A model generated the notes under the pieces. That model made no database searches. It saw only the letters and a program-made list of their open reading frames with translations, and was not told where the DNA came from. From an uncultured Candidatus Saccharibacteria bacterium (GTDB lineage Bacteria > Patescibacteriota > Dojkabacteria > J137), in NCBI GenBank assembly GCA_964437465.1, contig CAYTGI010000006.1, forward strand, positions 1-44,956: 44,956 nucleotides of DNA, written 5' to 3'. The translations under genes and the position numbers were made by a program. Numbering within the stretch: the first letter of the stretch is position 1; the number at the start of each line of letters is the position of its first letter. Positions 5,234 to 40,712 of the stretch are shown here, in pieces.

Positions 5234-6040
5234 ATGAGTAAAAAAAATGAAAGTAAAGAAAGGTTTAATGTTTGGTTACAACAAGGTAAACACGATTTGG
5301 ATGCAGCAAAAGTATCACTAGAAGGCGGTTTTTATGAATGGGTTTGTTATCAGTCAATTCAAAGCGTTGAGAAGATCATTAAAGCAGTAGTTGTTCATTC
5401 AGGATTTCGTCCCCCAAGAGTTCATAAACTCGGTGTCCTTCTTGGAATGGCTAATAAGGCTAATAAGGCTTTTGAGGATGTAAAGCTAGAGTTTAGAAAG
5501 ATTGAATCCTATACTTTTATCTCTCGTTATCCATTTATAATTCCTGGGCAAAATAAAACTCCTCACGAATTAATTACAAAAGAAGAGGCAGAAACCTGTA
5601 TTAGATTAGCTACAGATATTTTAGATAAGATCGAAACATTCTTATCTGGGCAAACATCTTCATCAGGAGATAAGCCTATAGAAACTGGAGACTATTATTT
5701 TTCAAAAGAAGAGATAACTTCGAGAATAGAAAACTTGATCGAATCGATTATAAATTGTGAACATATTAAAACAGAGAAGATTATACTTTTCGGAAGTTTT
5801 GCTAGAGAGAAGACTAGGCCACGAACGTCAACTATGGATATTATGGTAATAGGGAGAACAGAACTACCTTTTCTTGAAAGAATTAGTTACGTTCGAGAAA
5901 TAACTAGAGGAAGTGAACCAATTGTTGAGCCATTAGTCTATACTCCAGAGGAGTTTGATCAGCTTCTTAATGAGGAGGGTGAGGGGTTTTTAGAGACAGC
6001 TTTAGAGGAAGGGAAAGTTATTTGGGAAAGATTTAATTAA
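5234..6040 (+). CDS. HEPN domain fused to a C-terminal minimal nucleotidyltransferase (MNT) domain
   Basis: WLQQGKHDL..A, QSVEKIIKA, RPPRVHKL, SRYP (HEPN); KIILFGSFAR and VYTPEEF (MNT). Confidence 0.85.
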   Translation: MSKKNESKERFNVWLQQGKHDLDAAKVSLEGGFYEWVCYQSIQSVEKIIKAVVVHSGFRPPRVHKLGVLLGMANKANKAFEDVKLEFRKIESYTFISRYPFIIPGQNKTPHELITKEEAETCIRLATDILDKIETFLSGQTSSSGDKPIETGDYYFSKEEITSRIENLIESIINCEHIKTEKIILFGSFAREKTRPRTSTMDIMVIGRTELPFLERISYVREITRGSEPIVEPLVYTPEEFDQLLNEEGEGFLETALEEGKVIWERFN

Positions 6041-6582: not shown

Positions 6583-6600
6583 AATTCGTAATTCGTAATT
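6583..6600. repeat. Heptamer repeat AATTCGT x2.5
   Basis: aattcgt aattcgt aatt abutting the stop of the giant ORF. Confidence 0.6.
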
Positions 6601-9600
6601 AATCCAAACTTTCTCTAATAGAGTAGAACCTTGAACCGAAGCTGTTCTCGTAAATCTTCTTGTATCTTCCATCATGAACAAATAGATGTGCAGGTCTTTC
6701 AAGATTTCCGTTACCATTACCATTCATGTTTCTTTGAAGGTCTAGTTCTCTTGCGTAAACCCCTCCTTTAATCATTAACCCATCCCATTTAAATGTATCT
6801 CCAGATTCGTTATCAAGCTCAGCCCTGAAAGTCCCATCTACAATGAAGAATCCCTCTATGATATCATAGTCTGCTGGATTATTAGTGAAGATATTAGTAT
6901 TTGTTTTACTTTCCCCAGTCTTAATTATTACATCTCCTTTCACAACGAATATACAACCATTTTGATTATGTCGAGTTGTTAAATCTGGTTCAATAATTAA
7001 GTTCCCTTCTACAAATATTATTCCTTGTTGATCACATACAGCACCGCTTCTAATTGATACATCATTTTTTACAACAACAGGTCGAATAACATCTCTGTTT
7101 TCAGGTCTTGGGCAGAATCCTTCAGCAGTTGCTGAACCACAACCATTTGCATTTCGTGATGATCCTTGAGGACATGATGTACCTGGATTGATGAATGGCT
7201 CGCAAGCATCTTCATCGTATTTATCTGGTGTACATCTATAACAAGTTGTAACTGTTTCAAAAACTTCTCCCGGAGCTCGTTGACTAAAGCTTGTTGGACC
7301 ACTAACAGTTCCACTAGGACATGTAGCTGCCTTGTAATTAAAAGGATTACATTGGCTTAAGTCTGTAACTCCAGTTTCGCAGATAAAACATGTAATTTCA
7401 GATGGACATGTACCACCATGGATAGTTGAGCAATTAGGGTTTGATGTAGATCCACTTGGACAGATACTTCCTTGATATATAAATGATTCACAGGCATTTT
7501 GATCTCTCTTATCTTCTGTACATTTATAACAAGTTATTTCCACAGGACAGTTATTACCACACGTGTTTGATCCATTTACCCATCCTGCAGGGCAGTTATA
7601 GTTGTTAGAAGATACATCGAAAGTACTATTCTGACATGTATTTCCATCATTTTGAGGGATTGTACACCTAGAACAAGGTATTTGAGCTGGACAGTTATTA
7701 CATGTATTTCTACCTTGAGTCCATCCAGATGGACAATTCGATGCATTGAAAGTTTGGTTTTGACAAGCACCTTGGTCAGTTGTTGAGTCAGTACACCTAG
7801 AGCATGTTACATTTGCAGGACATGATCCACCATTAACTTGAGCACATCCATTATTGTTTGGGGTAGATCCTGCAGGGCAACTTGTTCCTGTGTGAATGAA
7901 TGATTCACAGTTATTCCCGTCTTCCAAAGAGCTAGTACATCTATAACAGGTAATTCTCAAAGGGCAAGTGCCACCAACTGCACCTGCACAACCATTACCT
8001 GCTGTAGAAGTGCCACCTGGACAAGAAGGTCCACTATACCACCTACCTTTACAGGCATTTCCATCGGTAAATGATCCTGTGCATGTGTAACAAAGAGAAT
8101 CTATAGGGCAAGATCCCCCAACAGCACTTGCACATCCACTTGATGATGTGGATGTTCCACCTGGACAGTTATTTGAATTTACTGTAAAAGCTTCACATGT
8201 ATTTCCATCTCTACGGCTTGAGGTACATCGATAACAAGTTCTGCTTACTGGGCAAGATCCTCCTACTGCTGCAGCACAGTTTGAACTTAGATTGTAAGCT
8301 CCTGGATTTCTTAAATATTGATTATAGTAATCTACATCATAAGCTTCACAGTTATTTCCATCATTTGTTGCAGAAGTGCATCTATATGCCCTTACAAAGT
8401 AAGGACATCTAGCACTTCCTGAGTAAATTTGTAAATTACTTGAATATCCCCCCCTTTGTTCGCAAGTACCGGATGTAATTGTAAATGGTTCATTTGTATA
8501 TGGGCTATCATATACATTACTAGTACATCTATAGCATACTGTTGATCCTGGGCAAGTACCAGATTGACATCTGCTTTGATCAGTCCATCCTGCAGGGCAA
8601 ACTGATCCTCTAACTCTTATTCTATTGCATGCACTGGTACTATCGCTTGTAGTTGAAGTACATTGATAGCAATCAGTAAATTCTATCCTTTTTTCACAGA
8701 CATTACTGTTTTGACATTGACTAAGGCTTTGAAATACATTCTGTGGATTATTATAATAATCCTGAATTGAACCAAAGTACTGTTCACATTGGTTACCGTC
8801 GTATGGATTGGTAGTACACCTGTATAGACTTGTTGAATATCCAGAATAATGCCTAGAATAGTAACCTGAATAGCAAACTCCTTGATCTTGATACCATCCT
8901 GCTGGACATCTTTCAGCGAAATAACCTTCCTCACAATTATTCGAATAAAAGAAACTATCATTATAACTTGAGCTACTCGCAGGTCTAAAACACCTTAATG
9001 TCCTTGGAAACTGATTATGTAAAGGAGGTTTTGGATTTCTGCAATAGCCTGTTTCTGAATTGCATAAATTGCTATTACTATACAGTCCATAATCCGCTTC
9101 ACAAAAGTAACTGAATACTCCTATATATTGACAGCTATTTGAACCACATCTATAACATCCTGTAAGTTCATCTCCGTAATATTGTTGAAAGCTAGCAGTA
9201 TTAGATGTAAGTACTTCATTAGGTATGAATGCTAACTCATCTTTTCTATCAAGATTTTGAATTTTTTCTAAGTTGACTGGGCTAAAACTAACATCATCTT
9301 GAGAAGAATTATTTTTCTTGTCTTCAGCAACAGTAGAAATCCCTCTAACATCAGGGAAAAGTGCTGAATTTGAAAAGAATTCATCAATAACTACAGGTTC
9401 ATCTATTGTTGGTAGTTCACCTCCATTATTTCTTTCAACTCTGTCTAAGATATGGTTATACCAATCATCAAAATTAGCTTCTCCTGGAACTTCAATAGCC
9501 TCATCAGTATACTGAGTAAGAATATTACTTCTCAATGATACTCGATCTTCAGGTAAAACATTATTCCCTATAATTACAGTTTCAGTAGATAAAGTAGCTG

Positions 9601-12535
9601 AGCCTTCGTATATATCGGGAATTTGCAGGCTGGTATTAGGTATCTCAACATTATCTATACCCTCGCTAGCTGATATTGAGCCACCAACTGACATTAACCA
9701 TGCGGGTTCTAATGCTTTAGCCTCAATTTCTTTTATAGCAACTCCAACATTACAAGCTCTATCTGTTACATAAAGAGCATGGCCCACTGGAATCTCTAAT
9801 TCGTTTCTTAAATCATTGAATGTAAATGTCCCTGTCAAAGATGCATTAATATTTGAATCTCTTTTAGGATTCCTTGTATATAAACTATCGTTACTATTAT
9901 TTTGGTAGATTAAATTTACGTTTTGGAAAGCACCTGCACCTGCATTTGGCTTATATTGATAGAGGGCGTTATTATTTGGTGTATAAAGATAAGCTCTAGT
10001 TTTACTATTATCAATTCCGCTTTGATTTACAGCGGTAGATTCTCCCCCCGACCTTGTTACTTGATATTCACTATTTGTAATAAAAGTAGGGTCGGTTAAT
10101 AGGACATCTGGTTCATCCATATCTATTCCCCAGTCGCCCCATTTTGTTAGTCGAATTGCATTTACATCTCTCGTCCCATCATTAGCAGGAGTAGCATTCC
10201 ACTGGTTAATTACAGTGTAATAAACACTATAAGTACCGTTAAAGAAAGAGTTACCAAATTCTATATCAAAGTTAACATTAGGGTTACTTGAAGATCCTGA
10301 CATTCTTGCAGTTACAGTACCTCTATATGTACTTAGATCTTGCCCTGTATTGCCGGAGATTGTTGTTCCTGAAGGATTGTATGTATACACAGTTTGATTT
10401 CTTGGATCAATTGTAACCATTATTCCCTCACTATTTCTAACCTTTTCTCGTACTGAGTTTCTTAAAGGTGTATTACCATTTTCAAATACACCGTTTCTTT
10501 TTCCATCGTTACCTGTTTTAGGTACAAAATAAACCTCTATTGATTTTATTTCACCTCTTGGTTCGTTTGCTCGAATATTAAATTCTAGTGGATTACTTAC
10601 GCTTGGATCGATACTACCAGCAAGTCCAGATATTCCATTACCACATGTATCATTAGTAACACCTACATTTGGAACGGTTGGTCTATCGATACAGGTTAAA
10701 GTGTCTATAGTCCTTGGAGAATTATTCAATAGAGGATTACCTCCGTTTGGATTAATAGCAAAAGCATATATGTCCTTTATATTTCCATCTATAGTACTAT
10801 CTGGAAGAGGGATATCAAACCCATGATTTCTGTTGCCACCACATTGATTTCCTACAGCTACTTCTCTTTGAACATTAGCCGTACCTGTAGTTATTAAGCT
10901 ACCTCGAGGTCCTCCTTGAGGTCCTTCGTAGACATGAATTGCTAAGGATTGGTTATAATTATCAGCATCACATGTCCATCCGACTAAACGGTTACAATCA
11001 ACCCCATCATGAAAACCTATAGGTGAGTGATTAGTTACATTTGTGCAAGAGTTACTGCAATAAGAGCAAGTAGCGCCAAGGGCTGCTCCTGGTGTACAAC
11101 TTGAGCCATTACTTCCTCCATTATCACACTGTTCAGATCCTTCACGATTATCATCTCCACAACAAGCAGGAGCAGTAAAAGCAAGTGAATTTGATGAAGC
11201 TCTCCCTGTAGAACTGTCATAGACTGATGCGTAATAGGTTGAACCAGCATTTAAAGTGAGTCTTGAACCTGATGTTGTACTTGGTTCACCTCCACTATAT
11301 TGTCTAAAACTATTTGCTAGTTTTCTTACAAATGATGTATTTGCATTTGTATTAAACCAAGAAAGTACTTTAGGATTAGTAGTATCAATATCCACCCAAT
11401 AGTTATTCCCAGTCCCTGACCAATCTACTTCTATAACTTTTTGACTATTACTATCACAATATGCCCTTGCAGAGGTTACTTGTGGTATTTCACAGTTTGG
11501 TGCAACGAAGCTTCGAGAGTTTGTAGATCTTTGGTCTTTAGTTCCATTATATACTGTAGCGTAATATCTAGTTCCTGGAGTTATATTAAAAACAGTTCCT
11601 GGATTACTGTTATATGGGTTTGCTGTTCTTTGTCTAAAATTAGTAGAATTGGCATTATATCCTATCGTTGCTCCAGCTCTATAATTCCAAAAAGTTCCTG
11701 CAGGGTTTCCTGAAGTTGTATCTAAATCAATATAGTAATCTTGGCCATTTGGACCTGTCCAATCAATATCTAAAAAAGTTTGCCCATTATTACAGTATGC
11801 ATTTGCACCAGTAACTTCAGTTACTTGTTCTGCAAGAGAAAATTGAGAAGTTGCCCATACAGCTCTCTGTCCATTACTTTTATAAACACCCCAACAATAT
11901 GTTCTTCCAGGAGTAAGTGAAACAGATATTGGTGCTTTACTTGGAGAACCTCCATTTTGATACATTAGATACCAAGTTCCTGGAACATTCATTGTTGGGC
12001 TTGAAAGTATAGGTTCAGTATTACCGGCTGTACAAGTTCCTGTAAATAGGTATAGTGAGTAACTTCTTGAACCAGTACAATTTACACCCCAATCTGTTAC
12101 TGTCCAATTGAATTCAATGTTTGAAGTATTAAAAGGTAATACTGCTCCGCTAGATGGATATTTCATCCCTGGTGCAGTAGGATTTGTCGGGGAACAACAT
12201 GTGCATCCTCTAGTTGCTCCACAAGAATTCCTCTGGATTCCAGCAGGGCATTCGCAACCACCCCATCCTCCATCGGTATCATTTAAACAACAAGCATTAC
12301 TATGCCATCCACTTGCACAAAGTATCTTTGGGGGAGGACAATGGTCTCCAGGTGGATTTGAACATGTTTCATCAGTTCCACAACCACTGCACTGATTCAC
12401 ATTTGCATTATTACAACATGTTCTTCCAGATTGAGCTTCTAAATTTAATTCACCTACTGAATGAGAATAAGTAATAAAGGCAATAGAAAAAAGGCAAACA
12501 AATAAAAATGTGTGAATAATATTATAAATCTTCAA
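6599..12535 (-). CDS. Giant secreted/surface Cys-rich multidomain protein (1978 aa)
   Basis: N-terminal signal/TM; two ~110-aa beta-rich repeats; CGD..REGSEQCDNG motif; about 12 CYRCT..DGN.C..CP.G..C..GG.CP repeats; C-terminal IFVEGNLII/IIEGFFIVDG/LMIKGGVY domain. Confidence 0.9.
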   Translation of the reverse strand: MKIYNIIHTFLFVCLFSIAFITYSHSVGELNLEAQSGRTCCNNANVNQCSGCGTDETCSNPPGDHCPPPKILCASGWHSNACCLNDTDGGWGGCECPAGIQRNSCGATRGCTCCSPTNPTAPGMKYPSSGAVLPFNTSNIEFNWTVTDWGVNCTGSRSYSLYLFTGTCTAGNTEPILSSPTMNVPGTWYLMYQNGGSPSKAPISVSLTPGRTYCWGVYKSNGQRAVWATSQFSLAEQVTEVTGANAYCNNGQTFLDIDWTGPNGQDYYIDLDTTSGNPAGTFWNYRAGATIGYNANSTNFRQRTANPYNSNPGTVFNITPGTRYYATVYNGTKDQRSTNSRSFVAPNCEIPQVTSARAYCDSNSQKVIEVDWSGTGNNYWVDIDTTNPKVLSWFNTNANTSFVRKLANSFRQYSGGEPSTTSGSRLTLNAGSTYYASVYDSSTGRASSNSLAFTAPACCGDDNREGSEQCDNGGSNGSSCTPGAALGATCSYCSNSCTNVTNHSPIGFHDGVDCNRLVGWTCDADNYNQSLAIHVYEGPQGGPRGSLITTGTANVQREVAVGNQCGGNRNHGFDIPLPDSTIDGNIKDIYAFAINPNGGNPLLNNSPRTIDTLTCIDRPTVPNVGVTNDTCGNGISGLAGSIDPSVSNPLEFNIRANEPRGEIKSIEVYFVPKTGNDGKRNGVFENGNTPLRNSVREKVRNSEGIMVTIDPRNQTVYTYNPSGTTISGNTGQDLSTYRGTVTARMSGSSSNPNVNFDIEFGNSFFNGTYSVYYTVINQWNATPANDGTRDVNAIRLTKWGDWGIDMDEPDVLLTDPTFITNSEYQVTRSGGESTAVNQSGIDNSKTRAYLYTPNNNALYQYKPNAGAGAFQNVNLIYQNNSNDSLYTRNPKRDSNINASLTGTFTFNDLRNELEIPVGHALYVTDRACNVGVAIKEIEAKALEPAWLMSVGGSISASEGIDNVEIPNTSLQIPDIYEGSATLSTETVIIGNNVLPEDRVSLRSNILTQYTDEAIEVPGEANFDDWYNHILDRVERNNGGELPTIDEPVVIDEFFSNSALFPDVRGISTVAEDKKNNSSQDDVSFSPVNLEKIQNLDRKDELAFIPNEVLTSNTASFQQYYGDELTGCYRCGSNSCQYIGVFSYFCEADYGLYSNSNLCNSETGYCRNPKPPLHNQFPRTLRCFRPASSSSYNDSFFYSNNCEEGYFAERCPAGWYQDQGVCYSGYYSRHYSGYSTSLYRCTTNPYDGNQCEQYFGSIQDYYNNPQNVFQSLSQCQNSNVCEKRIEFTDCYQCTSTTSDSTSACNRIRVRGSVCPAGWTDQSRCQSGTCPGSTVCYRCTSNVYDSPYTNEPFTITSGTCEQRGGYSSNLQIYSGSARCPYFVRAYRCTSATNDGNNCEAYDVDYYNQYLRNPGAYNLSSNCAAAVGGSCPVSRTCYRCTSSRRDGNTCEAFTVNSNNCPGGTSTSSSGCASAVGGSCPIDSLCYTCTGSFTDGNACKGRWYSGPSCPGGTSTAGNGCAGAVGGTCPLRITCYRCTSSLEDGNNCESFIHTGTSCPAGSTPNNNGCAQVNGGSCPANVTCSRCTDSTTDQGACQNQTFNASNCPSGWTQGRNTCNNCPAQIPCSRCTIPQNDGNTCQNSTFDVSSNNYNCPAGWVNGSNTCGNNCPVEITCYKCTEDKRDQNACESFIYQGSICPSGSTSNPNCSTIHGGTCPSEITCFICETGVTDLSQCNPFNYKAATCPSGTVSGPTSFSQRAPGEVFETVTTCYRCTPDKYDEDACEPFINPGTSCPQGSSRNANGCGSATAEGFCPRPENRDVIRPVVVKNDVSIRSGAVCDQQGIIFVEGNLIIEPDLTTRHNQNGCIFVVKGDVIIKTGESKTNTNIFTNNPADYDIIEGFFIVDGTFRAELDNESGDTFKWDGLMIKGGVYARELDLQRNMNGNGNGNLERPAHLFVHDGRYKKIYENSFGSRFYSIRESLD
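7110..8830 (-). repeat. Intragenic array of about 12 six-cysteine repeats (43-53 aa each)
   Basis: Units such as CYRCTSSRRDGNTCEAFTVNSNNCPGGTSTSSSGCASAVGGSCP and CYRCTSSLEDGNNCESFIHTGTSCPAGSTPNNNGCAQVNGGSCP; boundaries approximate. Confidence 0.85.
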
Positions 12536-29339: not shown

Positions 29340-29740
29340 CACTTAACCTGTAATTTTCATTACAGCGTGGACTATCTCATCACCATACGATTTCTCATTT
29401 AGGTGTCGGGCGCTCTAGGGTGTAAATCACCTAGTCTCTGAACCTTTTCCATTTTGTTGGAACTTGGCTGCGGATTACCTTAGAATTTCCTTAGGCTTCC
29501 CGCAATTCACCCGATGTTCATTCCTGATTTTCATCAGGAAGCTGCGTGATTCCGCTATGTATTTCCCGATGACAGTTTGAATATACAAGAATGCACTTAT
29601 CTAACTCTGTTTTAACCTTTTGCCAAGATCTTGTTAGCCCTCTTTGTGAAAGCCCAAAATCTTTATTTGCACGATCTTTGTATTTTCTATTGTCAATCTT
29701 TCCCATATATAAAAATGGGGATTAATAATAGCTAGTGAAC
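29340..29740 (-). mobile_element. Group I self-splicing intron (401 nt)
   Basis: P GAAUUGCGGGAAG (29496-29508), Q AAUCCGCAGCCAAG (29463-29479), R GUUCAGAGACUA (29432-29444), S GAGAUAGUCC (29369-29380); terminal G; exon U paired to GCAGC guide (29541-29545); GAAA-capped P2 and P9. Confidence 0.93.
29518..29706 (-). pseudogene. Degenerate HNH homing endonuclease ORF inside the intron P1 loop
   Basis: KDFGLSQRGLTRSWQKVKTELDKCILVYSNCHREIH resembles the C-terminal half of Zn-HNH endonucleases; the central CxxC/His segment is missing. Confidence 0.75.
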
Positions 29741-31012: not shown

Positions 31013-31816
31013 ATGGCAAGATCATTTCTCAAAGGTAAAGACAAGTTTCATAATATTAGAAAACTAAATATTTTTTTAGGTACAATTCACCTAATTCAAT
31101 CTCTAATTATATTCTCGGTTTCTAACAGTACGTTAGTACAATTCAACTCAGATTACTTTGGCTTACTATCAGGACAAGCTGCTAGGGAATTTGGAAATAA
31201 TTCCCAGGTTCTATTCGAGGTCAGATTAAGTGCATTGGTAGCTTTATTTTTGTTTATCGCAGCTTTAACTCATTTTTTGACTACTTCATCAGGGATAAGG
31301 GAATGGTATGATAAGAATCTTAAAAAGGGGATTGGATATGCAAGGTGGTGGGAGTATGCTTTTAGCTCCTCAATAATGATTGTCATTATCGCTTCTATTG
31401 TGGGAATTACTAACTTCTTTACAATATTAGCTATATTCACCTTAAATGCATTGATGAATATTTTTGGCTTGATAATGGAGAAGACTAATTCTGGGAAGAA
31501 GAAAGATTATGATTGGACCAGCTTTATCTATGGGGTTATAGCCGGGATTGTACCTTGGATAATAATATTTAGCTATTATTTTGGAGCACTTTCATTAGCC
31601 ATTCCAACTGCAGCTTTCCCTCTCGGTGGATATGTGATATGGATACTTGTCATTGATTTTGTATGGTTCTCAGCATTTGCTTTAAATATGTATGCTGGTT
31701 TCAGAAAAATAGGACCGTGGAAAAATTATTTGTATACTGAAGTTGTTTACAGTTTCTTGAGTTTATTCTCTAAATCAATTCTTGCTTGGCAAATCTTCTT
31801 AAATCTACTATCTTAG
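31013..31816 (+). CDS. heR: Heliorhodopsin
   Basis: 7 TM; LGTIHLIQ (helix A His), ALTHF (helix B His), RWWEYAFSSSIMIV (counterion Glu), YSFLSLFSKSILAWQ (retinal-binding Lys). Confidence 0.93.
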   Translation: MARSFLKGKDKFHNIRKLNIFLGTIHLIQSLIIFSVSNSTLVQFNSDYFGLLSGQAAREFGNNSQVLFEVRLSALVALFLFIAALTHFLTTSSGIREWYDKNLKKGIGYARWWEYAFSSSIMIVIIASIVGITNFFTILAIFTLNALMNIFGLIMEKTNSGKKKDYDWTSFIYGVIAGIVPWIIIFSYYFGALSLAIPTAAFPLGGYVIWILVIDFVWFSAFALNMYAGFRKIGPWKNYLYTEVVYSFLSLFSKSILAWQIFLNLLS

Positions 31817-35338: not shown

Positions 35339-36058
35339 ACTTTATTTTATCAATCTCTTTTGCTGCTCTTATATAGCCATACTCATAAATTTCATCAGCT
35401 TTAGATTGATCTAAGAATACTTTAAACTGTCCTGCCATGTCTTTAAAAATCATATCTTGGGGATCCATTTTTTCATCTTGATCTTGAATGACACTCATCG
35501 AAAGTGTCATAGAGGCTAATATAGATTTGAGAATATTTTTATGATCAGATTCTTCAAACACGGGTTTTTCTGAGTTCGCTTTAAATCCAAAAATAACATC
35601 TGCCCTTTTTCTCTCAGAAAATTCACTCCATAGCCGGAAGAGACATCTCCATCAACATAATAAGTATTATTATATCGAATTGGTTTATATAATTCTGCCA
35701 TGGCCATTGATGAGACTAATGATTCAGTTAAGTCTCCATCTTCTAAGATTACACTTCTTTCTTGCAAAAGATCTGTCTTTTAGGAATTCATTTATGTAAC
35801 CTTTAGTTTTTTCATAGCTTAAAATTGATCTTTCAAATAAAGATTCTATTCCTGCAAAATGTTTGACGCTAAAGCTTTTTGTGAAATCTAGAATTTTGTT
35901 CCTAATGCGTAGGCTGTACCGATCAATGCTCCAGCACTTGAGCCTATGATCATAGAAACTTCAATGTCGTTTTCTTCTAGTGGATCTAGAAAACCAATAT
36001 AAGAAATACATCGAGCTCCACCGCCTCTAAAAGATAGTGCTAATTTTTTCTGATTCAT
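35325..36058 (-). pseudogene. Patatin-like phospholipase pseudogene (at least three frame breaks)
   Basis: GGGAR and GSSAG in the first fragment, YYVDGD in the second; frame-shifted bridging text ILDFTKSFS...FLKDRSF and KGADVIFGF restores a continuous patatin. Confidence 0.85.
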
Positions 36059-36168
36059 GTTATCAGCATTAATAAATGGCCAATTTATGATATAATATAA
36101 AAGTAATAAAAGCACATTAAAAAGAGAATTGGAGTTCCCCGAGCATCTATTAAACCCAATAGGTGCTC

Positions 36169-36609
36169 GGGGGATGCTAAATTCGACAATATATTAAAGG
36201 TTTTAAAGCAAGTCAGGGGATTGATTTGATCCTGCTGCGAACAAAAACAAATCGCCAAATAAATAACAACCCTGTTGTTAATGCTCTAAATAAAGCTGCT
36301 GATGCAGTTGGAAACTTCCTATTCGGAACACCTAACTACAACATCGCTTAATTTTAGGGTGTATGCTGAAAACAAAAAGTAAGCATGCCGTTTATATGAT
36401 TCTTTCCTGATGGATGAATATAAACGCCCAATTAGTCAGGATGCAATTAATATTTTTGATTTATAAATATTAATCAAGACTTTAATAAATCCTAAAAAGC
36501 TCATTTTTGCTTAGTTTTTATTAGCTTTTTAGAAAAATAAACTAAGATAAGCTTGTAACAACTTTATCTCATTTGATTTATTGGACACGGGTATCCGTCA
36601 TCTCCACCA
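36169..36609 (+). ncRNA. ssrA: tmRNA, one-piece, with reduced D-loop and T-arm; predicted tag (A)NNPVVNALNKAADAVGNFLFGTPNYNIA at 36265-36351
   Basis: Acceptor GGGGAUG/CAUCUCC-A-CCA with G3-U70; UUCGAC; helix 2 pairings CAAUA/UAUUG, UAAAGGUU/AACUUUA, GCAAG/CUUGU; pk1 GAUUUG/CAAAUC; tag ends IA-stop. Confidence 0.92.
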
Positions 36610-38034: not shown

Positions 38035-38691
38035 ATGAAGCTTAAAGCACAGAAACGAGAACTATTAGGTAAAAAAGTTAAACACCTAAGAGCCGAGGGT
38101 TTAGTTCCTGCTACTATATACGGACCTAAAAGAGAGGCAACAAACATTCAATTTGATGAGAAAACTTTTAAAAAGGTATTTGATAAAGTTGGATACAATA
38201 AATTTATTGAACTTGAAATTGAAGGTGAAAAGCCTACAAGGGTTTTGGTTAAAGAGGTGAATTTCGATCCAATAAAAGACAATATTATGGATATCAGTAT
38301 TTATGATGTTGATGAGGATAGAAAAGTATCTGTAGAGGTACCTATTGAGATAACTGGAGAATCTCCAGCTGTAAAACTAAAGCTAGGATTCTTAGTTCAG
38401 CAAACTACAGCAGTTGCTGTTTATTGTTTACCTAAAGATCTTCCTGGAGAGTTTAAGGTTAGTATAGAGTCAATTGAAACTACAAGTGATACTATATCTC
38501 TTTCTGACTTAGATCTACCAGAAGGTGTTGAATTTGATAGTAGCGTTGATCCAAATTCAGCAATTGTTTATATTGCTACTGATCAAAAAGAAATTGTAGA
38601 GGACGAGATTAAAGATGATGAGGCGGGTGAAGGAGAAGGTGGTGTTGAAGGAGAAAGTACAGAAGGAGAAAAATCCGAAGGTGAAGAATAA
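38035..38691 (+). CDS. rplY: 50S ribosomal protein L25/Ctc (long form)
   Basis: LRAEGLVPATIYG, VKEVNFDPI, VEVPIEITGESPAVK, CLPKDLP; acidic tail. Confidence 0.93.
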   Translation: MKLKAQKRELLGKKVKHLRAEGLVPATIYGPKREATNIQFDEKTFKKVFDKVGYNKFIELEIEGEKPTRVLVKEVNFDPIKDNIMDISIYDVDEDRKVSVEVPIEITGESPAVKLKLGFLVQQTTAVAVYCLPKDLPGEFKVSIESIETTSDTISLSDLDLPEGVEFDSSVDPNSAIVYIATDQKEIVEDEIKDDEAGEGEGGVEGESTEGEKSEGEE

Positions 38692-38712
38692 TATACTTTT
38701 AAGTTAAAGTTT

Positions 38713-38745
38713 GAACCCTGAACAAAATTGTTCGGGGTTCTTTTT
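38713..38745 (+). terminator. Intrinsic terminator after rplY
   Basis: GAACCCUGAACA-AAAU-UGUUCGGGGUUC followed by UUUUU. Confidence 0.85.
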
Positions 38746-38809
38746 ATATTATTGATTTAGTAAACTACAGGGTTTATGTTAGGGATTTTAGTTTTACCCC
38801 AGCTTAAAC

Positions 38810-38838
38810 GTGACAATTGTTTTGGAGGTCACTATAAT
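38810..38838 (+). promoter_or_regulatory. Putative sigma70 promoter, probably giving a leaderless mRNA for the Lon-like gene
   Basis: GTGACA-17 nt-TATAAT; ATG 5 nt after the -10. Confidence 0.55.
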
Positions 38839-38843
38839 GGGTT

Positions 38844-40040
38844 ATGAATCAACAGCAGCTTCAACATCAGTTACAACAACCCCAACAGCCACAACAACAA
38901 GCTGCTCAGACAGGTTTTAATATTGAAGACGAGATTGCTTTGCTTGAAAAGCAAGTTTTAGCTAACCCAATGCCAGAAGATTTAAAGCAAAAGGCTCTAG
39001 GAATGATTTTGAGATTGAAGAAAATGACTGCTGGGGGTAGTTATGGTAAGGAATTTGAGCCGGTTTCTGAGTATATTAGCTGGATTGTAAAGCTTCCCTT
39101 TGGTCAGTATACCAAAGATACTCTAGATTTAGATGCTGCTTATGAAGAATTAAATAGAAACCACTATGGTTTAGAACCTGTAAAACAAAGAATATTAGAG
39201 TATTTGGCTGTTCTGAAGCTTCAGGATCAGAGAAAACAAGAAAATCTAAAAACAGCTCAAAATGCTGCTGATCCATCAGCAGAGATGAAGAAACTACAAG
39301 GAAGCTCTTCTCATGCTCCGATACTTTGTTTTGTAGGCATTCAGGGTGTTGGTAAAACAACTATGGCAAAGTCTATTGCTACAGCATTAGGGAGAGAGTT
39401 TATTAGAGTTTCTCTTGGTGGCTTAGGAAATGTAGTTGAGCTAAGAGGTCGATCTAGAGGAGAGCCCGATGCTGAACCAGGTCAAGTTGTAAAATCTTTA
39501 GTTCGAACACAGGTAATGAATCCACTAATCCTTTTGGATGAAATAGATAAAGTAAATCTTCAAAGTGGATTGAGGGCTGACATTATGGCTGCTTTACTTG
39601 AAATATTAGATCCTGAACAAAACTCTGCATTTATGGATAAATATCTTGATTACCCTCTAAATCTGTCTCAAAGTATTTTTATTACTACTGCTAATAATCT
39701 TGGAGGTATATCCGCAGCACTTTTGGATAGGCTTGAGATTATTAGATTTGGTAGTTATACAGATAAAGATAAAGTGAATATAGCAAAAAGTTATTTATTA
39801 CCAAAGGTAAGAAAGGCGACTGGATTATCAGAAAATGAACTTTCGTTTGATGATAACGTATGGCCATTAGTTATAAGACCTCTTGGTTTTGACGCAGGAG
39901 TCAGGCAGTTAGAGAGAACGCTAACTGATTTAGCTAGAAAAGTAGCCTTACAAATTGTAAAAGGATCCACTAAAGGTGTAAGGATTTCTGAACAAAACTT
40001 TAGAGAGTTTATTCCTGAACAGATCGGGATAATGAGCTAA
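38844..40040 (+). CDS. Lon-type AAA+ ATPase module lacking the N-domain and the protease domain
   Basis: HYGLEPVKQRILEYLAV, ILCFVGIQGVGKT, LLDEIDK, LLEILDPEQN, FITTAN, LLDRLEII, AGVRQLER; ends right after the alpha subdomain; Gln-rich N-terminus. Confidence 0.88.
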   Translation: MNQQQLQHQLQQPQQPQQQAAQTGFNIEDEIALLEKQVLANPMPEDLKQKALGMILRLKKMTAGGSYGKEFEPVSEYISWIVKLPFGQYTKDTLDLDAAYEELNRNHYGLEPVKQRILEYLAVLKLQDQRKQENLKTAQNAADPSAEMKKLQGSSSHAPILCFVGIQGVGKTTMAKSIATALGREFIRVSLGGLGNVVELRGRSRGEPDAEPGQVVKSLVRTQVMNPLILLDEIDKVNLQSGLRADIMAALLEILDPEQNSAFMDKYLDYPLNLSQSIFITTANNLGGISAALLDRLEIIRFGSYTDKDKVNIAKSYLLPKVRKATGLSENELSFDDNVWPLVIRPLGFDAGVRQLERTLTDLARKVALQIVKGSTKGVRISEQNFREFIPEQIGIMS

Positions 40041-40128
40041 TATTTCAAATTCTAAATTACAATATCTAAATTCTAAAAATCTCCAAATACGTTTAGAATT
40101 TGGAGATTTGATATTTAAATTTTGCCTT
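40041..40128. repeat. ORF-less inverted heptamer-repeat element (AATTCTA arm / TAGAATT arm), possible bidirectional terminator
   Basis: tatttca aattcta aattaca atatcta aattcta ... tagaatt tggagat ttgatat ttaaatt; core inverted repeat AAATCTCCAAAT/ATTTGGAGATTT at 40077-40109. Confidence 0.75.
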
Positions 40129-40130
40129 TA

Positions 40131-40712
40131 TTATCCGTTTAGGAAATTCTTGTAATCCTTGTCTTTTTTAATTGCTTGTTCAATTGAGTTTCTTACAATT
40201 TGTGCTTTGTGCATTCTCTTAGTATTAGAAGCCCAATCTAAATATCTATCAATTTCAGGAGAGATAATTAGAATAAATTTTGTATCTAACTTACCTTTTG
40301 CATCTTCCACAGCACTGTTAACTACATCAACTATATTTTTTGAGTCATATTTTATAGTCATTAGGTGTTTAGATTTTGAGCCCTCGATAGGTAAGACATC
40401 TGAAAAGTTATCTTTTCCTTGTTTAAGTGCAATAACTATCTTTTTCTCTGATAGAGCATTAGCTATATCAAAACCAATTTTAGTGTCAGGATTTGTAATG
40501 TCAGCGATTACTATGTCAGTATCTCGCATAGCTTTTTCTAGTTTCTTTTGATATTTTTCAGAAGATTTAGAATCATTTTTCTTTAATGCTTGTCTAAAAT
40601 CTAAATCAGATTTAATGTTGTGTCCTTGTCTTCTTAAATTGTCAATTGCTTTTGAAAAAACTTTGTAATCAGACTCTTTATATTCGTTGTTGTAAATTAC
40701 TAAAATCTTCAT
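40131..40712 (-). CDS. Nucleoside 2-deoxyribosyltransferase-like domain fused to a ribbon-helix-helix DNA-binding domain
   Basis: DIVIADITNPDTKIGFDIANALSEKKIVIAL (NDT-like); KFILIISPEIDRYLDWAS..KRMHKAQIVRNSIE (RHH). Confidence 0.7.
   Translation of the reverse strand: MKILVIYNNEYKESDYKVFSKAIDNLRRQGHNIKSDLDFRQALKKNDSKSSEKYQKKLEKAMRDTDIVIADITNPDTKIGFDIANALSEKKIVIALKQGKDNFSDVLPIEGSKSKHLMTIKYDSKNIVDVVNSAVEDAKGKLDTKFILIISPEIDRYLDWASNTKRMHKAQIVRNSIEQAIKKDKDYKNFLNG

Follow-up and report, generated by a model that had tools for sequence, protein, structure and literature searches.

Lon is seen as the archetype of a single-chain AAA+ protease, with ATPase and peptidase always fused, and a chaperone-like, proteolysis-independent activity of the mitochondrial and bacterial enzymes has long been debated. 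Here we describe a gene for a Lon-derived ATPase on 44,956 nucleotides of a contig from an uncultured Candidatus Saccharibacteria bacterium (CAYTGI010000006.1; the whole stretch is called the window below), whose product keeps the Lon motor and has neither of the domains that flank it in LonA. The AAA+ module, the Lon lid and a preceding three-helix bundle are common to this protein and to the LonA enzymes, including E. coli Lon (EcLon), B. subtilis LonA, M. taiwanensis LonA and human LONP1, with 39-42% identity across ~360 residues. The window protein differs from these enzymes in lacking the LON N domain and the S16 Ser-Lys protease domain, and in reading G-I-Q-G rather than G-P-P-G in Walker A and ...R-G-E-P-D-A-E-P-G rather than ...R-T-Y-V-G-A-M-P-G in pore loop 1. 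Its pore loop 2 has a 2-residue insertion and no aromatic residue, and a new conserved tail and a Gln-rich head complete the list of differences.

Nearly the same domain content is found in EcLon(235-584) (PDB 6N2I), which consists of the C-terminal part of HI(CC) together with the NB and H domains. That molecule, however, is a laboratory proteolytic fragment, whereas the window protein occurs in nature as a complete gene product under selection, has termini of its own and differs in its pore loops. M. taiwanensis LonC, which also belongs to the Lon lineage, is likewise reported to have lost one of the two activities (PMC3391209, PMC13069640). It is a mirror image of the present case, since LonC has kept the protease domain and has an inactive ATPase-like module, whereas the ATPase of the window protein is apparently active. 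The helical region of LonA resembles the H1/M region of ClpB (PMC6722904), and the window protein would resemble ClpB/Hsp104 and ClpX, stand-alone unfoldases of the Hsp100 type, by function and not by family: its AAA+ module is a single one, and it has no M domain, zinc-binding domain or IGF loop, and ClpB is encoded separately nearby in its relatives. ClpX also provides the model of a stand-alone ring that docks on a separate peptidase by a short hydrophobic motif.

In the 398-residue protein, Pfam recognized an AAA domain at residues 161-301 (3.8e-19) and Lon_lid (PF22667) at 324-376 (3.6e-11), with no match to LON_substr_bdg (PF02190) or to Lon_C (PF05362), the latter sought at E<=0.1. The TIGR00763 'lon' model aligned via model positions 250-571 of 795 alone and scored 345.3 bits against a cut-off of 608, while NF008053 gave 255 bits against a cut-off of 891. 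The ClpA, ClpB and ClpX models each scored below 27 bits, compared with 345 for Lon. Every significant phmmer match in the PDB was a LonA (best, B. subtilis 3m6a at 3.9e-73; also E. coli 6n2i/6u5z and human LONP1). An AlphaFold2 (AF2) model built on 68 relatives had a predicted local distance difference test score (pLDDT) of 86 and a predicted TM-score (pTM) of 0.81; pLDDT fell below 50 at residues 1-21 only and was ~60 in the last block. The top Foldseek matches of the model were all LonA, with a target-normalised TM-score of 0.88 to 6n2i.

The initial annotation of this DNA had described the N-terminal substrate domain as replaced by a Gln-rich tract. The LON N domain is indeed absent and half of the residues in the head are Gln (13/26), but the replacement is only partial, since the C-terminal three-helix bundle of HI(CC) is retained at residues 27-83; it can be aligned with the Lon proteins of B. 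subtilis and E. coli, and with TIGR00763 starting at model position 250. Linker helices, the AAA+ module with its α/β and lid domains, and a tail of 10 residues make up the rest of the protein, and the open reading frame (ORF) ends ~10 residues past the lid domain. The MNQ start is common to close relatives. Across 120 of them the head varies from 0 to 153 residues (median, 23) and is rich in Q/S/N/P/T.

The ATPase motifs described as intact in the initial annotation (Walker A, Walker B, sensor-1, Arg finger and sensor-2) were all found (Table 1) and are invariant or nearly so in the 120 relatives. No variation was seen at the Walker A Lys, the Walker B Asp-Glu, the sensor-1 Asn, the Arg finger or the sensor-2 Arg. 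EcLon numbering follows from the 6u5z alignment (query 157-391 = EcLon 348-580), and we take the names and roles of the EcLon residues (K362, D423/E424, N473, R484, R542 and Y398) to be those of the established Lon literature. The window protein is a LonA derivative without the LON N domain and the S16 protease domain and with complete ATPase motifs. Because the LonA protease domain and N domain are absent, the score stays below the equivalog cut-off and the pore loops lack the LonA signature, the name 'Lon protease' is unsuitable. NCBI calls these proteins 'AAA family ATPase' only; the JGI and Prokka name is 'ATP-dependent Lon protease', a pipeline label by which metabolic reconstructions of the candidate phyla radiation (CPR) may wrongly credit these bacteria with Lon proteolysis.

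A search of 5.8 billion proteins returned more than 120 clusters at 58-83% identity, all of 353-520 residues, with AAA and Lon_lid and no Lon_C; most of the named clusters belong to Candidatus Dojkabacteria. One cluster (P0001) matches the window protein at 100% identity, and the nearest other relative stands at 83%. When representatives of 50%-identity clusters were searched exhaustively, the scores dropped from the protein's own family (639 bits) to proteins of 350-507 residues at 44-58% identity, in which Walker A follows the pattern G-[LIV]-[QVA]-G-x-GKT, as against GPPGVGKT in canonical Lons, and the pore loop closes with D/G-x-E-P-G. Among the best 80 loci in GTDB species genomes, ~37 held genes of this kind, with ORFs of 350-470 residues that all stop at the same boundary. 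Their labels were Dojkabacteria, Nomurabacteria, Woykebacteria, 'Patescibacteria group' and 'Saccharibacteria', and a few loci labelled Gammaproteobacteria or Methanoperedens are probably mis-binned. Canonical Lon accounted for 43 of the best 80 loci, none of them from Patescibacteria, which is weak evidence that canonical Lon is rare in that group. Pfam found AAA and Lon_lid only (no Lon_C, no LON N domain) in ten distant members; among the distant members, one has a 320-residue Q/P-rich head and another an S/N-rich C-terminal extension. Separately, P0121, P0123, P0124, P0129, P0130, P0132, P0135, P0140, P0142 and others are proteins of 900-1400 residues with two or three tandem Lon-type AAA+ modules, some of which have variant pore loops such as LRGHNRTW[RK].AQPG.

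We define the clade here, rather than from a curated family, by a length of 350-520 residues, an end at the lid/protease boundary, a Walker A of G-[ILV]-[QVA]-G-x-GKT, a pore loop 1 of ...[DGE]-x-E-P-G and monophyly with respect to LonA; the window protein shows all of these features. In a neighbor-joining (NJ) tree of 317 aligned columns, 57 short proteins stood apart from 45 canonical LonA sequences in 200/200 bootstraps, so that the phylogeny against LonA that the initial annotation had proposed as a check places the short proteins in one clade. Divergence within it was 0.70, compared with 0.68 among canonical Lons from many phyla. This combination of monophyly and large internal divergence indicates that the loss of both flanking domains is ancient and stably inherited. 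Judged from these sequences, the LON N and S16 domains were lost cleanly, at domain boundaries, in an ancestor of a large part of Patescibacteria (CPR), and the gene has been kept since as a housekeeping gene under strong purifying selection. We found no description in the literature of a protease-less Lon in CPR, Patescibacteria, Dojkabacteria or Saccharibacteria.

The same picture was obtained when we looked at the gene itself. It had been said to end cleanly with no protease domain following, and the next gene does lie at 40131-40712 on the other strand. When seven full-length Lons were compared with all frames of the 45-kb window by tblastn, they matched the AAA+ part only and no protease- or N-domain sequence; neither a separate Lon_C gene nor a full lon was found there. 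The source run, which is a microbial-mat metagenome, yielded an independent unitig of 2148 nt that spans positions 38437-40584 at even depth and with no differences, reaching 544 nt past the stop codon. An assembly break hiding the protease domain, which had been named as a way for the proposal to fail, was therefore not seen, and synteny is kept across independent assemblies. Nor did we find the other such circumstance, a full-length Lon at this locus in relatives: 120 close and ~37 distant homologues end at the same domain boundary.

Selection on the gene was also estimated. Against the closest relative (84% amino acid identity), nonsynonymous divergence (dN) was 0.13 and the synonymous proportion (pS) 0.75, which is saturated, so that the resulting dN/dS of ~0.03, the lowest of six neighbouring genes, is an order-of-magnitude figure; it nevertheless indicates strong purifying selection. 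Identity among six Dojkabacteria genomes was 55-70% for the ATPase and 26-55% for YidC, L25, the FtsA-like protein and other neighbours, with only GroES comparable. Together, the motifs, the conservation and the clade support the core of the initial annotation, namely that the gene probably encodes a functional, non-proteolytic Lon-derived ATPase and is not a damaged lon.

Pore loop 1, RGRSRGEPDAEPG (spelled out, R-G-R-S-R-G-E-P-D-A-E-P-G), aligns with RGHRRTYVGAMPG, which puts E207 at EcLon Y398 and agrees with the earlier claim that the pore-1 aromatic residue has been lost; the canonical form in ~90 Lon representatives is [IL]RGHRRTY[IV]G[AS][ML]PG. Among the 120 close relatives, the Tyr position is held by E/N/S/Q/T, the residue after it is V/L/I in 75 and Pro in 11, including the window protein, and an aromatic residue occurs anywhere in pore loop 1 in only 7. 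Members of deeper branches often have one, in the forms K-A-F-L-D-A-E-P-G (with F exactly at the Tyr position), R-A-Y-L-D and P-R-Y-S-I-D (shifted by one). Aromatic loss is thus a feature of the window lineage but does not define the family, many deeper members of which keep F or Y. The changes found throughout the clade are Met-to-Glu in 'A-E-P-G-Q' and an acidic residue two positions earlier, and these two changes make for an acidic pore loop. From the distribution of residues, the protease domain seems to have gone first, and the aromatic pore residue to have been lost afterwards on several occasions; the pore-loop rewiring is a property of the window lineage and not the event that gave rise to the family. 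In M. taiwanensis LonA, pore-1 Tyr397 and pore-2 Trp431 touch the substrate and are needed for degradation (PMC8503904).

How, then, might such a protein work? We put the probability at roughly 0.5 that it is a stand-alone hexameric protein remodeller or chaperone. The ATPase would assemble as a Lon-like hexameric ring; we infer a hexamer because the trans-acting Arg finger is invariant and has a meaning only in an oligomer. EcLon(235-584) packs as an open helical hexamer without its protease domain (PMC6722904), which makes ring formation in the absence of that domain plausible. The ring would hydrolyse ATP and serve as an ATP-dependent chaperone or unfoldase that remodels or unfolds its client proteins but leaves them undegraded; clients would enter or be recruited at the three-helix bundles and the disordered head. 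In the Dojkabacteria lineage, of which the window is a part, the pore-1 Tyr would have given way to a polar or acidic residue (Glu207 here) and the pore-2 aromatic residue would have been lost. Loss of the pore aromatics probably weakens the grip on polypeptide or alters its specificity. The predicted channel would be acidic and poorly suited to nucleic acid, and the pore loops suggest local remodelling, not processive threading. We counted for a chaperone the position of the Dojkabacteria gene in a block with GroES, GroEL and ClpB, and for a stand-alone role the finding of no linked peptidase in the window or in the loci compared.

Several points weigh against a remodeller or chaperone. Its oligomeric state, ATPase activity and clients are deduced from sequence, and the DNA was traced to DNA runs only (the microbial-mat metagenome), with no expression data found. 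The chaperone-gene neighbourhood is limited to Dojkabacteria; most genes in it form transcription units of their own, and synteny alone may account for it. A ring without an aromatic pore residue may carry out no polypeptide translocation at all. Finally, a pure chaperone model leaves unexplained a near-invariant tail at the extreme C-terminus.

This tail speaks for a different function, in which the protein is the ATPase half of a two-component protease. Here, a Lon-derived ring would unfold substrates and feed them to a separately encoded peptidase (a split-off Lon_C, ClpP or another self-compartmentalised enzyme), on which it would dock via the flexible but conserved tail, much as HbYX tails do on proteasomes, HslU C-termini on HslV and ClpX IGF loops on ClpP. 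We regard this as rather unlikely, though several observations point to it. P at -8 and G at -4 are present in 120/120 relatives, S at -1 in 118/120 and Y at -2 in 92/120, with [VI]-Y-S as the end in 92/120; this is over-conserved for a disordered tail and far above what its low confidence (pLDDT ~60) would suggest. A second Patescibacteria group has its own fixed end, D-Q-G-P-L-S, and others end in ...[FI]-[IL]-P-x-[YW]. The ends of most relatives fit the hydrophobic-Tyr-X of proteasome activators, and I-G-[VI] recalls the IGF of ClpX, as resemblances only. Deeper members with an aromatic F or Y in pore loop 1 look like competent translocases, and TM7x, a Saccharibacterium of the same phylum, is annotated with ClpP.

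However, TM7x is also annotated with ClpX, the usual partner of ClpP, and the window protein itself ends in I-M-S, without the Tyr. The tail segment is homologous to the LonA linker that joins lid and protease domain, so its conservation may have intramolecular reasons, and threading normally needs an aromatic residue that is missing from the Dojkabacteria pore loops. Across ~40 loci, which fall into three synteny types, no gene for a peptidase showed linkage to that of the ATPase, and a Pfam scan found no cytoplasmic peptidase among the window ORFs. Likewise, there was no significant match to ClpP or ClpX near any of 84 loci, with approximate sequences of E. coli ClpP and a ClpX fragment as queries. 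An extended form of this idea, which we consider doubtful, is that Patescibacteria swapped the single-chain Lon for a two-component machine, an AAA+ ring docking via a G-[VI]-Y-S (or DQGPLS) tail on a separate peptidase in a new ATPase-peptidase pairing. If true, such a machine could also clear proteins bearing the unusually long transfer-messenger RNA (tmRNA) tag of the lineage.

We also considered whether the protein might be directed to nucleic acid or the ribosome, as a remodeller of DNA, RNA or ribonucleoprotein (for example in ribosome assembly or tmRNA-linked rescue) that would build on the DNA binding known for LonA. Loss of the aromatic pore residue has parallels among AAA+ rings with nucleic-acid substrates. 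The Dojkabacteria gene lies within a tmRNA - yidC - (jag) - rplY block, and another group has it near PNPase, RNase J and FtsK. On the other hand, these neighbours vary by lineage and are generic housekeeping genes, a terminator parts the ATPase gene from rplY, and the closest structural relatives are all protein translocases. The acidic pore loops (E207, D209 and E211; 'D-A-E-P-G' clade-wide) are moreover unfavourable to nucleic-acid binding, and we think a function of this kind improbable.

A recent truncation, a lon pseudogene remnant or an assembly or frameshift artefact hiding the protease domain has a negligible chance of being correct and is already refuted by the relatives, tblastn, the unitig across the stop codon and dN/dS, since more than 150 independent assemblies show an identical end point, the catalytic motifs do not vary, the short proteins form a single clade with deep divergence, and no frame of the window holds Lon_C-like sequence, even though such artefacts do exist (P0160 is a canonical Lon with its protease domain hidden by a frameshift). 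P0160 is the closest 'full-length' relative without a Lon_C match, and we rejected it as an evolutionary intermediate: it is a frameshifted canonical high-GC Lon whose Arg-rich C-terminus is nonsense sequence.

Whichever function applies, a whole radiation of minimal-genome bacteria keeps only the Lon motor, about as conserved as GroES. The clade offers a natural system for the action of a Lon ATPase ring without proteolysis. It also shows how pore loops evolve after the degradation chamber has been lost, with the aromatic residue kept in some branches and repeatedly lost in others.

Table 1. Features of the ATPase gene, its product and the upstream region. Nucleotide positions are those of the window; aa, residue numbers of the protein.
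Feature	Position (nt)	Strand	Evidence or remark
Protease-less Lon-type AAA+ ATPase gene	38844..40040	+	ORF, 398 aa, stop codon 40038-40040; Pfam/NCBIfam domains, LonA structure matches
Disordered Gln-rich N-terminal tract (aa 1-26)	38844..38921	+	13/26 Gln; pLDDT ~43
Three-helix bundle (aa 27-83), C-terminal part of LonA HI(CC)	38922..39092	+	AF2 helices 27-40, 45-64, 68-83
Walker A GIQGVGKT (aa 165-172; K171 = EcLon K362)	39336..39359	+	Clade form G-[ILV]-Q-G vs LonA G-P-P-G
Pore loop 1 RGRSRGEPDAEPG (aa 201-213)	39444..39482	+	Glu207 for LonA Tyr, Pro208 for Val/Ile; E211 of 'EPG' marks the clade
Walker B LLDEIDK (aa 230-236; D232/E233 = EcLon D423/E424)	39531..39551	+	D232, E233 and K236 in 120/120
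Pore loop 2 region VNLQSGLRADI (aa 237-247)	39552..39584	+	2-residue insertion; Leu243 at LonA F/M/W position
Sensor-1 TTANN (aa 281-285; N284 = EcLon N473)	39684..39698	+	Alignment, family conservation
Arg finger LLDRLE (aa 293-298; R296 = EcLon R484)	39720..39737	+	R296 in 120/120
Lon-type lid (aa 324-376), including sensor-2 GVRQLER (aa 352-358; R354 = EcLon R542)	39813..39971	+	PF22667, 3.6e-11
Conserved tail FIPEQIGIMS (aa 389-398)	40008..40037	+	Consensus [FY]-I-P-E-D-I-G-[VI]-[Y>F,V,L,M]-S, at the extreme C-terminus
Intrinsic-terminator-like hairpin and T run after rplY (L25)	38713..38740	+	12 pairs, 6 G-C
Promoter-like site GTGACA-17-TATAAT	38810..38838	+	11/12 match to -35/-10 consensus only; ends 5 nt before ATG
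tmRNA	36170-36609	+	Rfam 52.8 bits vs gathering score of 47; ARAGORN misses it

In Dojkabacteria the gene order is tmRNA - yidC - (jag) - rplY(L25) - ATPase - 193-aa gene (other strand) - ftsA/pilM-like - 676-aa unknown - groES - groEL - clpB. The terminator hairpin sets the ATPase gene apart from the upstream operon, and similar hairpins are present at two of the related loci (L005 and L007). That the gene has its own promoter, as had been proposed, is plausible: the terminator after rplY and the near-consensus site speak for it, but promoter-like sites in this sequence are not enriched over shuffles (14 vs 12.3). A GGAGG at 38826-38830 offers an alternative reading of the same region. TATAAT-like boxes lie 5-8 nt before the ATG in L004, L005 and L036 as well, mostly without a Shine-Dalgarno sequence, and the ATPase mRNA may be leaderless and monocistronic.

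Outside this arrangement, a second synteny type has dCTP deaminase and cysteine desulfurase upstream and a convergent cluster resembling VirB4 and type IV secretion systems (T4SS) downstream, and a third has PNPase upstream and uracil-DNA glycosylase, RNase J and FtsK downstream. Clustering the neighbourhoods of 40 loci gave these three unrelated types and no common partner. The cluster of VirB4-like ATPase, TraC-like and PrgI-like genes, on the opposite strand and 3' of the ATPase gene, is found in 16-18 of the 40 loci (L003, L008, L009, L012, L013, L016-L020, L022, L023 and L026-L030), all in one Patescibacteria group. We judged it plain synteny and not a functional partner, given its convergent orientation. 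A 440-aa gene directly downstream in L001 was also rejected as a partner, having no Pfam match and no counterpart in the window.

The initial annotation had placed the gene 2.2 kb from an 'aberrant' tmRNA. The distance is right (2235 nt between the Rfam-defined tmRNA and the ATPase gene downstream of it), but the RNA is not aberrant. It measures 440 nt and carries a large insertion where the tag is encoded, and tmRNAs of 435-455 nt occupy the same place upstream of yidC in four relatives (L001 7707-8162, L004 7674-8108, L036 4364-4816 and L084 3686-4122), so that this length is typical of the lineage. Its proximity to the ATPase gene is ordinary housekeeping synteny. The putative tag frame would encode a long peptide with ...GTPNYNIA at its C-terminus. 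Abutting the tmRNA gene is a patatin-like ORF of 75 aa (35888-36115, minus strand) that covers the N-terminal quarter of the phospholipase domain only (GGGxR...GSSAG). The closest relative has a 76-aa counterpart (L084 3350-3580, minus strand), which indicates that the short patatin-like form is conserved and no one-off truncation.

Elsewhere in the window, a full-length group I intron (Rfam RF00028, 99 bits, E=1.5e-24) lies at 29348-29600 on the minus strand, flanked by genes for an NYN-domain protein and an AAA_16/ORC-like protein. We identified no tRNA or rRNA gene as its host, and ARAGORN found no tRNA in the window. A giant ORF of 1978 aa (6599-12535, minus strand) has no Pfam match at E<=1e-4. 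On the plus strand, positions 131-2230 encode a fusion of LigD-type ATP-dependent DNA ligase and primase-polymerase, positions 5234-6040 a toxin-antitoxin-like fusion of HEPN and Pol-beta nucleotidyltransferase domains, and positions 31013-31816 a heliorhodopsin (Pfam PF18761, 2e-71).

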